Shown: positions 7,831 to 12,735, counted from the stretch's first letter. The stretch: 24,000 nt of DNA from Massilia eurypsychrophila (GCF_002760655.1 NZ_PDOC01000003.1:200840-224839), one strand, 5' to 3'. Notes: a model not told the origin generated them from the letters alone. Program-made: numbers and translations.

Positions 7831-10800
7831 TCAATGCAGCCACACGCGCATCAGCGACAGCAGCTGCGCCACGTCGACCGGCTTGGTGATGTAGTCGGAA
7901 GCGCCGGCGGCGATGCACTTGTCGCGGTCGCCCTTCATCGCCTTGGCGGTGAGGGTGATGATCGGCAGCGACTTGAACTTCGGAATACGCCGGATCGCGC
8001 GCATCGTGTCGTAGCCGTCCATCTCCGGCATCATGATGTCCATCAGGACGATCTCGATGGTCGGATCCTTCTCCAGCACCTCGATGCCGTCGCGACCGTT
8101 TTCGGCGAACGACACCTGCATCTGCTGGCGCTCGAGCAGCGACGAGAGGGCGAAGATGTTGCGCAGGTCATCGTCGACGATCAGCACCTTGCGTCCGGCC
8201 AGGCCGCCGTCGGCGGCGTGGATCTCTTCGAGCATGCGGCGCTGCAGTTCCGGCAGCGACGCGTGCGAACGGTGCAGGAACAGCGCCGTTTCGTCGAGCA
8301 GGCGTTCGGGCGAGCGCGCATCCTTGATGACGATGGTCTTGGCGTAGCGTTTCAGCTTCGTCACTTCCTTGCGCGACAATTCCTTGGCGGTGTAGATCAC
8401 GATCGGCAGGTCGCGCAGGTTCGGCTCCTTGCCGATCACGTCGAGCAGGTCGAAGCCGCTGATGTCGGGCAAGGTCAGGTCCAGCACCATGCAGTCGAAG
8501 TGCGACGTGCGCAGCGCCTCGAGCGCGTCGGCGCCGTTTTCCACCGCGACGATGCGCAAGTCGGAGTCGCCGATCAGCGAGACGATCGAATCGCGCTGCA
8601 TTTTCTCGTCGTCGACCACCAGCAGGCTGCGTTTGCCGCCCATCAGGAACTTCTGGATGCGGGTGAATTCCTCCTGCAGCGCTTCACGGTCGACCGGCTT
8701 GTTGATGTACGAGATGGCGCCCTGGCGCAGCGCGCGCTCGCGTTCGCGCATGCTTGACATCACGTGCACCGGGATGTGGCGCGTGCTCGGGTCGCGCTTG
8801 AGGCGGTCGAGCACCGTGAAGCCGTCGATGTCCGGCAGGTCGAGGTCGAGCAGGATCGCCGACGGCAGGTAGTCGCGCGCCATCGACAGCACCGAGTCGC
8901 CCAGGTGGGTGACGATGCCCTTGAAGTTTTTCTCGCGCGCGAATTCGAGCACGATGCCGGCGAAGGCGGCGTCGTCTTCGACGATCAGCACCGATGGATC
9001 TCCCGGGGCGATCAGGCCGCGGTCATCGAGCGTGCCGTATTCGACCACCTGCACCATGCCGCCGCCGGACACCTGCAGCGGCGTCACTTCGTTCTCGAGC
9101 TGCAGCGTGTTGGCGTACACCACCTGGGCCGGCGGCGGCGCCATGCGCGCGGGCTGCGGCTGGCGCGCCTGGTCGTAGTTGATGAAGCCGGCGCGGTTGT
9201 ATGGCAGGAACAGGGTGAACGTGGAACCGGAGTTGACCACCGATTCGACCCGGATCTCGCCACCCAGCAGGCGCGCCAGTTCGCGCGAAATCGACAGACC
9301 AAGGCCGGTGCCGCCGTACTTGCGGGCAGTGGAGCCGTCGGCCTGCTGGAACGCTTCGAAGATCAGCTGCAGCTTGTCGGAGGCGATGCCGACGCCGGTA
9401 TCCTTGACCGAGAATGACAGCACCGCATCGGCGTGCACCAGGTTCGGGTGGTCCGACGTCCAGCCGCTGGTAACGAGCGAAATCTGCAGCGCGACCTGGC
9501 CGTGGCTGGTGAACTTGAACGCGTTCGACAGCAGGTTTTTCAGCACCTGTTGCAGTCGCGTGGTATCGGTCATCACCGCGGTCGGCAGGGCGTCGGCCAG
9601 TTCGACCGTGAAGCCGAGATGCTTGGCTTCGGCCATGTGGCGGAAGGTGCGGTCGACGTAGTTGCGCAGGTTCGAGAAGCGGTACTCGGAGACGTCCAGC
9701 GTGACGGTGCCGGACTCGATCTTCGACAGGTCGAGAATGTCGTTAATCAGGGTCAGCAAGTCGGAGCCGGAGCCGTGGATGGTCTTGGCGAATTCGACCT
9801 GCTTGCCCGACAGGTTACCCTCCGGGTTATCCGACAGCTGCTGCGCCAGGATCAGCAGCGAATTGAGCGGGGTGCGCAGTTCGTGCGACATATTTGCCAG
9901 GAACTCTGACTTGTACTTCGACGACAGCGCCAGCTGGGTCGCCTTTTCTTCCAGCGCCAGCTTGGCCTGCTCCACCTCGCGGTTCTTGCGTTCCACCTCG
10001 ATGTTCTGCTCGGACAGCAGGCGCGCCTTTTCGGCCAGCTCCTGGTTGGTCTGCTGCAGCTCTTGCGCGAGCGACTGCGACTGCGTCAGCAGCGACTCGG
10101 TACGGCTGTTCGCCTCGATCGTGTTGAGCACCACGCCGATCGACTCCATCAGCTGGTCGAGGAAGGAAAGGTGCGTTTCGGTAAAGCGGTCGAGCGATGC
10201 GATCTCGATCACCGCCTTGACCTGCTGCTCGAACAGGATCGGCAGCACGACGATGTTGGTCGGCGGCGCCGCGCCCAGGCCCGACGACACCACGATGTAA
10301 TCGCGCGGCACGTCGGTGAGCCAGATGCGGGTCTTCTCGACCGCGCACTGGCCGACCAGGCCTTCGCCCGGCAGGAACGAGGTGGCCAGCTTGCGGCTGG
10401 AGCGGTAGCCGTAACTGGCGATCATGCGCAGGCGCGCGTCGATCTCCTGCGAGTCCATCATGTAGAACACGCCGTGGTGGGCCGACACCAGCGGCGCCAG
10501 CTCGGACAGGATCAGCTTCGTCACCGCCTGCAAGTCGCGCTGCCCCTGCAGCAGGCGCGTGAAGCGCGCCAGGTTGGTCTTGAGCCAATCCTGCTGCGCG
10601 TTCTTCTGTGTTGTTTCTTTCAGGTTGCGGATCATCTCGTTGATGTTGTCCTTCAGGTAGGACACCTCGCCGCGCGCCTCCACCTGGATCGAGCGACTGA
10701 GGTCACCACGGGTGACAGCAGTCGCGACTTCTCCGATGGCGCGCATCTGGTTGGTCAGGTTTGCCGCCAGCTGGTTGACGTTCTCGGTCAAGTCCTTCCA

Positions 10801-12735
10801 GGTGCCGGCCACGCCGGACACGTTTGCCTGTCCGCCCAGCTTGCCCTCGGTACCGACCTCGCGCGCCACCCGCGTCACTTCCGAGGCGAACGAGGACAAC
10901 TGGTCGACCATCACGTTGATGGTGTCCTTCAGCTCCAGGATCTCGCCCTTGACGTCCACCGTGATCTTCTTCGACAAGTCGCCGCGCGCCACCGCGGTCG
11001 TCACCGCCGCGATGTTTCGCACCTGGCCGGTCAGGTTCGACGCCATGAAGTTGACGTTATCGGTCAAGTCCTTCCAGGTGCCGCCGACGCCCGGCACGTA
11101 GGCCTGGCCGCCGAGCTTGCCTTCGGTGCCGACCTCGCGCGCCACCCGCGTTACCTCGGAGGCGAACGAGGACAACTGGTCCACCATCACGTTAATCGTG
11201 TTCTTCAGCTCGAGAATCTCGCCCTTGACGTCCACCGTGATCTTCTTCGACAGGTCGCCGTTGGCCACCGCGGTCGTCACGTCGGCGATGTTACGCACCT
11301 GGCCGGTCAGGTTACCGGCCATCGAGTTCACGCCGTCGGTCAGGTCTTTCCAGGTGCCGGCCACGCCCGGCACGTTGGCCTGGCCGCCCAGCTTGCCCTC
11401 GGTGCCGACCTCGCGCGCAACCCGGGTCACTTCGGAGGCGAACGAGTTCAATTGGTCGACCATCACGTTGATGGTGTTTTTCAGTTCCAGGATCTCGCCC
11501 TTGACGTCGACCGTGATCTTCTTCGACAAGTCGCCGTTCGCCACCGCGGTCGTCACGTCGGCGATGTTTCGCACCTGGCCGGTCAGGTTACCGGCCATCG
11601 AGTTGACCGAGTCGGTCAAGTCCTTCCACGTACCGGCCACGCCCTTCACCTGCGCCTGGCCACCGAGCTTGCCTTCGGTGCCGACCTCGCGCGCCACGCG
11701 CGTTACCTCGGACGCAAACGAGGACAACTGGTCCACCATCACGTTGATCGTGTTTTTCAGTTCGAGAATCTCGCCCTTGACGTCCACCGTGATCTTTTTC
11801 GACAGGTCGCCATTCGCCACCGCTGTCGTCACCGCGGCGATGTTACGCACCTGGCCGGTCAGGTTCGACGCCATGAAGTTGACGTTATCGGTCAAGTCCT
11901 TCCAGGTGCCGCCAACGCCCGGCACGTAGGCCTGGCCGCCGAGCTTTCCTTCGGTGCCGACCTCGCGCGCCACCCGCGTCACTTCCGACGCGAAGGAGCG
12001 CAGCTGGTCCACCATCACGTTGATGGTGTCTTTCAGCTGCAGGATCTCGCCGCGCACGTCGACGGTAATTTTCTTCGACAAGTCGCCGTTCGCCACCGCG
12101 GTGGTCACTTCGGCGATGTTACGCACCTGCGACGTCAGGTTACCGGCCATCGAGTTGACCGAGTCGGTCAAGTCCTTCCAGGTGCCGGCCACGCCTTTTA
12201 CCTGCGCCTGGCCGCCGAGCTTACCTTCGGTACCGACCTCGCGCGCCACGCGCGTCACTTCCGACGAGAACGAGGAGAGCTGTTCGACCATCGTGTTGGC
12301 GGTGGTCGCCGCGCGCAGGTACTGGCCCTTGAGCGGATGGCCGTCCACTTCCAGCGCCATCGTCTGCGACAGGTCGCCTTTTGCCACCGCGCCGATCACG
12401 CGCGCCATTTCAGTGGTCGGGCGTACCAGGTCGTCGATCAGGGTGTTGACCGAACTGATGATGGTGCCCCAGCCGCCGGCCACGTTCGGCACTGCCGCGC
12501 GCTGCGTCAGGCGGCCTTCGCGGCCGACCACGCGCGACACTTCCGTGACCGCCTTGACCATCTTCTCTTTCGTTTCGATGATCTCGTTAAGGGTGTCGGC
12601 GATCTTGCCGGCGACGCCGGTCCAGTCGGACGGCATGCGCGCGGTGAAGTCGCCCTTCTTTAACGCCATCAGCGTCGACAGCAGCAGCTTCGCGTCCAGC
12701 TCTTCAATGAAGTCGCTCATGTTATTCATCGACAT
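7831..12735 (-). CDS. Soluble hybrid sensor histidine kinase: poly-HAMP array, GAF, HisKA, HATPase_c and three receiver domains
   Basis: 1634 aa from ATG 12735 (GAGG SD upstream). No hydrophobic TM segment by eye. Seven HAMP-pair units, six of them close 92-aa repeats. GAF-like segment ([10 protein letters not shown]...[12 protein letters not shown]). H-box [18 protein letters not shown]-boxes DTGVGI and [19 protein letters not shown]. Three REC domains ([17 protein letters not shown]; [19 protein letters not shown]; [18 protein letters not shown]). Confidence 0.92.
10621..12276. repeat. Six in-frame tandem repeats of 276 bp (92 aa) encoding di-HAMP units inside the kinase gene
   Basis: The unit [91 protein letters not shown] recurs six times. 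I counted unit 1 at exactly 92 aa; the six-unit span assumes equal unit length. The promoter-distal unit (10621-10896) is the most diverged, and a seventh degenerate unit lies upstream (about 12277-12560). Confidence 0.9.

Follow-up and report, generated by a model that had tools for sequence, protein, structure and literature searches.

The subject of this work is a hybrid histidine kinase encoded on the minus strand of a 24,000-nucleotide stretch of Massilia eurypsychrophila DNA (GCF_002760655.1, NZ_PDOC01000003.1:200840-224839), which as a whole we call the window. Its gene stands between two others in a tightly packed three-gene unit. Upstream lies a response regulator gene with receiver, GGDEF and EAL domains (REC-GGDEF-EAL), whose stop overlaps the kinase start by 14 nucleotides. 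Downstream lies a gene for a CheR-like protein, which begins 14 nucleotides past the kinase stop codon (7831-7833, minus strand, from translation of the open reading frame). An earlier reading of this DNA, the original prediction, described the kinase as a protein with no membrane anchor in which HAMP pairs, resembling those of fungal group III kinases, feed a GAF domain, a kinase core and three receivers. We will show that this Massilia-type protein belongs with the soluble poly-HAMP hybrid histidine kinases known as AskA-like or "class III", and argue that its neighbours say something about how it may signal. The features are collected in Table 1.

Table 1. Features of the three-gene unit, in window coordinates (CDS, coding sequence; ORF, open reading frame; aa, amino acids)
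Feature	Coordinates	Strand	Extent and basis
REC-GGDEF-EAL response-regulator gene	12722..14740	-	Pfam Response_reg, GGDEF, EAL
Poly-HAMP hybrid histidine kinase CDS	7831..12735	-	1634 aa; ORF and translation, Pfam domains, annotated Massilia orthologues
HAMP 1, type D1 (first canonical HAMP)	12556..12699	-	residues ~13-60; gap-free AskA alignment (9trk_A)
Di-HAMP module 1	12280..12555	-	residues 61-152; divergent non-canonical HAMP and special third HAMP; AskA alignment
Di-HAMP modules 2-6	10900..12279	-	residues 153-612; one non-canonical and one canonical HAMP per 92-aa unit, five units, near-identical
Di-HAMP module 7	10624..10899	-	residues 613-704; divergent canonical HAMP, the last one, feeds GAF domain
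GAF domain	10126..10542	-	residues 732-870; Pfam GAF_2 2.8e-18, GAF 9.2e-08
Gln/Glu-rich linker, GAF to kinase	9913..10125	-	residues 871-941; conserved
Kinase core, HisKA and HATPase_c	9199..9912	-	Pfam 6.1e-20 and 4.1e-27
Three tandem receivers	7852..9000	-	Pfam Response_reg, three stretches, 1.1e-62
CheR-like gene	6992..7816	-	274 aa; Pfam CheR 8.6e-16, CheR_N 7.4e-11

The repeats of the kinase are regular. A 10-letter motif recurs at residues 159, 251, 343, 435, 527 and 619, and GTWKDLT recurs at residues 184, 276, 368, 460, 552 and 644, both at exact 92-residue steps. On the DNA, the tandem repeat at 10742-12292 has a period of 276 bp, with 5.6 copies, 84% matches and a score of 2120 (Tandem Repeats Finder). 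With the register taken from residue 13, the five units over residues 197-656 are 86-95% identical as protein and 80-89% as DNA, the unit at 105-196 is half-divergent and the unit at 13-104 is degenerate. The motif spacing and these identities agree with what had been predicted, namely 92-residue di-HAMP units with one degenerate unit ahead of them. The check proposed at that time, a Pfam scan, also comes out in favour: both HAMP models are called in the repeats at about 1e-62 (HAMP 2.9e-62, 6 stretches; HAMP_2 8.4e-63, 7 stretches).

The claim that each unit holds a pair of HAMPs needs more than Pfam. When fragments are scanned, it is one and the same half of each 92-residue unit, the canonical one, that HAMP and HAMP_2 pick up, and the non-canonical halves scanned alone (residues 150-200 and 242-292) give zero Pfam matches. 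On Pfam alone there is one HAMP per unit, and it is the alignment to a crystal structure that upholds the pairs. Residues 8-292 align without a gap to PDB entry 9TRK at ~75% identity (E = 6e-127), and residues 8-202 align likewise to 9TRJ; these entries are the 6-HAMP and 4-HAMP crystal constructs of Myxococcus xanthus AskA (MXAN_0712) (PMC13446029). We believe that the silent half is a HAMP as well because of this gap-free alignment to the six-HAMP structure and because of the literature on the family. Aligned in this way, the array reads as 15 HAMPs: one D1 HAMP and then seven modules in which a non-canonical HAMP (C) is paired with a canonical one (D2). Since Pfam is blind to the non-canonical half, Pfam-based counts will give about half the true number of HAMPs in such arrays. 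The ends of the array are the most easily missed. HAMP 1 scanned alone gives just a weak HAMP_2 match (E = 0.076), and module 7 has ~30% identity to the other units, with a Pfam HAMP match of 3.5e-06 when scanned alone. The array contains no cysteine, which excludes cysteine-based chemical modification of the HAMP region itself.

A family for such proteins has been described. In the definition of Coles et al. (Protein Sci 2026), a "kinase-associated poly-HAMP array" consists of repeated HAMPs of the C/D type that precede a GAF domain, DHp/CA and at least one receiver, as a rule with no sensor ahead of the array; they count 4778 kinases with such an array in NR90 (PMC13446029). Marcos-Torres et al. 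(2020) had already assigned AskA, AskB and Amb07 to a bacterial "group III" of hybrid kinases, with Candida Nik1 as a point of comparison (PMC7643160). The window kinase has the marks of this family one after another. Coles et al. ask for at least 5 directly concatenated HAMPs built from repeated di-HAMP modules, and there are 15 in residues 13-704. The six-HAMP alignment to 9trk_A places a D1 HAMP first and then alternating C and D2 HAMPs. The third HAMP, in module 1, has a proline in its input helix (Pro106, in RPTTEM against QPTTEM in AskA) and an insertion in its connector (DGHPLKGQY against EVDGRPLRGEFL in AskA), both of which are strongly conserved in AskA-like arrays (PMC13446029). A tryptophan opens each non-canonical output helix next to a junction glycine, in six copies of GTWKDLT and in the GGW of the first module. 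The array is followed by GAF, DHp/CA and receivers, with neither a sensor nor a membrane segment upstream. At ~75% identity to the solved AskA fragment, we infer that the array would form dimeric, stacked four-helix bundles with alternating (zig-zag) packing; such packing states of HAMPs arise in the dimer only.

The family is large and widely spread. A protein search with the array returned at least 8000 candidates; the matches listed are 66-83% identical, come from Acidobacteriota, Planctomycetota, Pseudomonadota, Streptomyces and Bacteroidota, and are mostly named "HAMP domain-containing protein". When genomes were scanned, at least 598 species genomes from many phyla proved to contain relatives; the closest, whose best segments are 91-95% identical, are those of Massilia sp. 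CF038, Massilia sp. ST3 and Pseudoduganella sp. RAF19. An NCBIfam search for a named subfamily gave generic kinase and receiver models only, all far below their cut-offs. With AskA, AskB and Amb07 the window kinase shares the absence of a membrane anchor and the alternating C/D2 modules of 92 residues, followed by GAF, kinase core and receivers. It differs in its HAMP number, 15 compared with 21 in AskA and 31 in AskB. It also differs in its organism, which is Massilia-like (Burkholderiales), and in its neighbourhood, with REC-GGDEF-EAL upstream and a degenerate CheR-like gene downstream. A link to development or ambruticin is neither known nor expected for it. The window kinase is an ordinary member of a large described family, and as such it matters little: the literature already covers the architecture, the array's structure and the relation to the fungal fungicide targets.

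The original prediction had also drawn a parallel with Aer2 (McpB) of Pseudomonas aeruginosa. Aer2 is likewise soluble, with concatenated HAMPs that alternate in packing state, and it was the first structural model for stacked HAMPs. However, its HAMPs number only 3 + 2, with a haem-PAS domain in between, and its output is a methyl-accepting signalling domain, not a kinase; Pfam finds neither a PAS nor an MCPsignal domain in the window kinase. The Aer2 structure 3VOL is a marginal match (E = 0.006) compared with 6e-127 for AskA, which is the proper structural reference. Coles et al. make the same separation by classing Aer2 as "multi-HAMP" and not "poly-HAMP" (PMC13446029).

The fungal link that had been put forward turns out well. 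Fungal group III kinases (Nik1, Os-1, Drk1, TcsC, Bos1) have about 5-6 repeats and one receiver, and they feed the eukaryotic Ypd1-Ssk1-HOG relay. The osmotic response and susceptibility to phenylpyrrole, dicarboximide or ambruticin run through them. We retrieved fungal proteins with a reconstructed bait sequence; all comparisons use the retrieved database proteins and never the bait. The proteins come from Chaetothyriales, Mortierella antarctica, Gamsiella multidivaricata and Coemansia sp., and one of them, P0165, clusters with RMZ78384.1 of Chaetothyriales sp. In all of them the anchor GxW..[LIV]T recurs at exact 92-residue steps, the sole exception being a 105-residue step in a Mortierella fragment. 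Without gaps, the fungal units have a mean identity of 54-69% to the window units and reach 73-79%. We read the bacterial and fungal HAMP units as homologous, with a common period of 92 residues.

This does not make the window kinase a fungal group III kinase in the proper sense, a placement that its GAF domain, three receivers and bacterial operon rule out. Both are soluble, with 92-residue HAMP units and then a HisKA/HATPase core. But in the ascomycete proteins P0165, P0154 and P0209 the H-box motif begins 85 residues past the last GxW anchor, inside the same 92-residue step, so that the H-box follows directly on the last HAMP and no GAF domain comes between them, whereas the window kinase has a GAF domain at residues 732-870 and a linker of 70 residues in between. 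It has three receivers, against fungal sequences that in our comparison are fragments ending before any receiver; it lies in a bacterial operon, and its closest genomes are Massilia and Pseudoduganella.

The units themselves are old, position-specific and strongly constrained. Between internal unit pairs the synonymous divergence (dS) is 0.32-0.72, and the ratio of nonsynonymous to synonymous divergence (dN/dS) is 0.06-0.21. Each unit of the window kinase is 98-100% identical to the unit in the same position of the relatives L004, L001 and L002 and 86-95% identical to their other units. Because the units match one to one and dS is of this size, they are neither recent amplifications nor the product of ongoing homogenisation in this lineage. 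Among more distant relatives the array ranges from ~2 to 12 recognisable modules.

Past the array, Pfam bears out the predicted order of GAF, kinase core and three receivers. HisKA covers residues 942-1009, with His951 as the predicted phospho-accepting residue, and HATPase_c covers 1057-1179. The H, N, G1 and G2 boxes can be located in the core. All three receivers keep the signature DD, D, T/S and K residues, with Asp1297, Asp1419 and Asp1566 as predicted phospho-acceptors. To judge from these residues, the hybrid kinase is catalytically complete. The linker between GAF and kinase, which we read as a coiled coil, is nearly invariant across all 80 related loci, the set that our comparisons of linkers, C-termini and gene neighbourhoods cover (numbered with L).

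By its sequence the kinase is soluble, as had been claimed. Kyte-Doolittle hydropathy over the whole protein finds no membrane segment, and the highest 19-residue mean, 1.54, falls inside the GAF domain. The possibility that a revised start codon would uncover a sensor has also been considered. An in-frame extension to 13029 has no hydrophobic stretch and reveals neither a membrane segment nor a sensor domain. This longer mechanical reading frame is not the real N-terminus: what it reads, out of frame, is the upstream EAL gene's 3' end, and the product would be an Arg/Ser-rich peptide. ATG 12735 is a reasonable start, and the annotated orthologues in Massilia genomes are 1629-1637 residues long. 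The true start may instead be one of the other in-frame ATGs, at 12729 or 12720; given a GAGGA at 12738-12742, ATG 12729 is the best-spaced candidate. On the opposite strand an open reading frame of 866 codons runs antisense to the array at 10063-12663 (+), and other long antisense frames cover the kinase gene. These are probably by-products of high G+C and repeated codons.

The question that the original prediction raised, how a chain of HAMPs with no membrane can sense anything, is left open by Coles et al. (PMC13446029). One answer is that it does not. The GAF domain would be the only true sensor, of a small cytoplasmic ligand, and the array a fixed modulator or spacer whose length tunes the set-point or gain. 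The range of array lengths among relatives together with the almost invariant GAF-to-DHp linker fits this plausible idea, which is raised by Coles et al., who label GAF as sensory in a figure legend (PMC13446029). However, a dN/dS of 0.06-0.21 and up to 79% identity between bacterium and fungus amount to a constraint beyond what a spacer should require. In ascomycetes the group III kinases do without a GAF domain, and mutations or deletions of their poly-HAMP region are reported in the literature to change responses to osmotic stress and fungicides. We consider it unlikely that GAF is the sole sensor. A PDB search with the GAF-kinase region returned generic kinase cores only and gave no clue to the ligand of GAF.

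Another answer is that the array binds DNA or the nucleoid and that the kinase reads or acts at specific promoters, as has been reported from in vitro work on AskB and the FrzCD N-terminus. AskB and AskA both bound a promoter fragment in vitro (PMC7643160), and partial Pfam matches to HTH_6 and SpoIIID, which were read as possible DNA-binding motifs in AskA and AskB, recur inside the window repeats. These matches score 19.1 and 24.0 bits against cut-offs of 28.3 and 27, and they lie on HAMP helices. The N-terminus of the window kinase is acidic and lacks a basic extension like that of FrzCD, the charge of the array is near-balanced (81 acidic and 76 basic residues), and according to Coles et al. 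the binding mechanism of AskB is not established (PMC13446029). We therefore regard a DNA-binding array as very improbable here. As a separate observation, residues 200-735 carry sub-threshold Pfam matches to HTH_6, SpoIIID, Laminin_II, GatB_Yqey and EspC, and these occur in the domain lists of nearly all homologues.

The downstream gene offers a third direction. Its product has the N-terminal helical and methyltransferase domains of CheR and matches the P. aeruginosa CheR1 structures at 1.8e-08. The conserved positions for binding S-adenosylmethionine (SAM) and for catalysis are not kept, however. The substitutions are R to D, G to E, G to P, the second E to Q, D to V, and R-N to Q-R, so that the window protein and its clade (L001-L004 and L011) read A-L-F-D-D, A-E-C-A-G-P-E-Q, A-T-V and C-Q-R. 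Which CheR positions contact SAM is taken from the CheR literature; what the alignment of homologues (A3) itself shows is that residues invariant in the family have been lost. Seven homologues that are linked to a CheB gene keep T-x-x-F-R, A-G-C-S-T-G-E-E, A-T-D and C-R-N at the same places (alignment A3), with the canonical residues at the R, G, C, G, E-E, D, N and R-N positions in all seven, and the sole variation among them is a serine in L039 for the threonine of T-A-M-F-R-D. The same degenerate forms occur in 16 further Massilia homologues that are 68-97% identical, and they are common to homologues from Massilia, Pseudoduganella and Cellvibrionaceae, none of which has a CheB. There is no CheB within the window either. 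The CheR-like protein is probably catalytically dead and retained as a partner protein; that the degenerate forms have been kept in sixteen Massilia homologues points to selection for a non-catalytic role.

Across the related loci a CheR gene is the only recurrent neighbour of the kinase. It lies directly 3' of the kinase in 17 of the 80, from many phyla. In 7 of these (L006, L008, L010, L026, L039, L041 and L079), which by their titles belong to Microcoleus, Pyrinomonadaceae, Gemmatimonadaceae, Syntrophobacterales and Solirubrobacteraceae, the order is kinase, canonical CheR, stand-alone CheB and then a second kinase of the form REC-(GAF or PAS)-kinase. This is the layout of the cfcABCDE cluster of Pseudomonas putida, in which the CheR/CheB pair is made up of CfcB and CfcC and plays no part in chemotaxis (PMC4951495).

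These loci suggest that the kinase itself could be a methyl-accepting protein that adapts by reversible glutamate methylation, carried out here by the downstream CheR. The linkage in 17 of the 80 loci, the CheB and REC-kinase that follow in seven of them, and a GAF-DHp linker rich in Glu/Gln pairs all fit. Against this, the CheR-like protein of the window clade is substituted at each of FxR, GxG, ATD and CRN, and there is no CheB. We looked for a methylation-site signature in the GAF-DHp linker and the C-terminal 40 residues that would separate CheR-linked kinases from the others, but both regions are near-invariant across the loci and no feature separates the two groups. A search of the literature for CheR acting on hybrid kinases found the P. 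putida cfc cluster, where the target of the equivalent CheR/CheB pair is not named and a chemotaxis role is ruled out (PMC4951495). Active methylation is attractive for the relatives that carry CheR and CheB, yet at the window locus it is unlikely, and as an account of the window kinase we find it quite improbable.

A weaker form of the idea deserves more credit. The CheR/CheB linkage may mark poly-HAMP kinases as targets of chemotaxis-style methylation and adaptation, and in the Massilia clade the module may have decayed to a conserved, dead CheR-like subunit that still binds and regulates the kinase. We offer this tentatively, as a possibility that falls well short of an even chance. Coles et al. 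raise post-translational modification as a possibility only and make no mention of CheR (PMC13446029), and neither the linkage to poly-HAMP kinases nor its decay to a probable pseudo-enzyme in Massilia was found in the poly-HAMP literature that we consulted. If the idea is true, the input that HAMP chains with no membrane are missing could be post-translational modification or the binding of a partner. The degenerate partner and the kinase-CheR-CheB-kinase operons together suggest a testable route for this input.

The upstream gene suggests an output. Its start is uncertain (there is a TTG at 14740 in the list of open reading frames), and its GGDEF, RxxD I-site and EAL motifs are intact. The REC-GGDEF-EAL protein is likely to be the phosphotransfer target of the kinase and its output into cyclic di-GMP (c-di-GMP), a second messenger, by analogy with P. 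putida. There the hybrid kinase CfcA, which has CHASE, GAF and kinase domains and three receivers, activates the REC-GGDEF-EAL regulator CfcR at high salt (PMC4951495; bioRxiv 10.1101/2024.11.25.625174). In its published domain description CfcA matches the GAF-kinase-receiver core of the window kinase, all three receivers included, and it too is followed by a CheR-family gene. The differences are in the input and in the surroundings. CfcA, a membrane protein, has a periplasmic CHASE-type sensor between two membrane helices instead of a poly-HAMP array; neither a CHASE domain nor a membrane segment is found in the window kinase by Pfam and hydropathy. The P. putida cluster has a CheB, while the window has a degenerate CheR-like gene and none. 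The gene cfcR is encoded elsewhere in the P. putida genome, while the window REC-GGDEF-EAL gene adjoins its kinase, an arrangement present in five Massilia-type loci including the window (the others are L004, L081, L082 and L084, with Massilia sp. CF038 among them).

The reading we prefer, and think rather better supported than an even bet would be, is that of an AskA-family kinase in which a HAMP rod and a GAF domain govern signalling to the REC-GGDEF-EAL protein and c-di-GMP, with the CheR-like protein as a binding partner. The kinase would dimerise into a long continuous four-helix rod of 15 stacked HAMPs. Its canonical and non-canonical HAMPs take turns, so that a helix rotating about its axis in one HAMP would do the reverse in the next; Coles et al. 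put this forward as the "gearbox" or zig-zag model (PMC13446029). The conformational balance of the rod and the state of the GAF domain would together set kinase activity through the conserved GAF-kinase linker. The kinase would autophosphorylate on His951 and hand the phosphate on, both to the three receivers that it carries itself and to the one in the REC-GGDEF-EAL protein. This would adjust c-di-GMP and hence biofilm or motility behaviour, a pathway that follows the analogy to CfcA and CfcR. The CheR-like protein would bind the kinase as a regulator, not as an enzyme. Our best guess for the input is an intracellular physical or chemical state, e.g. osmolarity or ionic strength, and we make it because of CfcA and the fungal relatives.

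Several points weigh against this proposal. The osmotic input is an analogy, and CfcA senses by way of the periplasmic CHASE domain that the window kinase does not have; for the M. xanthus relatives the reported links are to development and to either ambruticin or glycerol, not to a demonstrated role in osmosensing. That the kinase would phosphorylate the REC-GGDEF-EAL protein is proposed from adjacency only. The two closest non-syntenic relatives, L001 and L002, have no such gene upstream of the kinase, and no upstream gene is conserved across phyla in the related loci; REC-GGDEF-EAL is a Massilia-specific neighbour. The call that the CheR-like protein is probably inactive comes from residue substitutions at presumed SAM-binding positions. 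Pfam finds no Hpt domain in the poly-HAMP kinase; for a relay that starts at its receivers, such a domain would be required. Within the window, an Hpt domain was seen only in a second hybrid kinase (CHASE-PAS-HisKA-HATPase-REC-Hpt, 16287-19295, +), which could in principle supply this step.

The window system may yet be of modest use as an experimental object. Three genes packed closely together, in a genus that can be cultured and with c-di-GMP as a plausible, measurable output, could make a simple bacterial system in which to ask what a HAMP chain with no membrane senses.

The remaining observations concern the surroundings of the unit. Opposite the second hybrid kinase lies an open reading frame of 1033 codons with no Pfam match, which is probably spurious. 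Divergent from the three-gene operon is a gene for a LuxR-type regulator (15056-15793, +), with an open reading frame of 93 codons on the other strand at 15768-16049. Three other Massilia contigs with the same three-gene unit have a luxI synthase gene and a small HTH_92 gene at that position, with luxR divergent. The window has no room for luxI, so its LuxR looks like a LuxR solo. The G+C content is 0.57 over 14001-16000, compared with 0.64-0.70 on either side.

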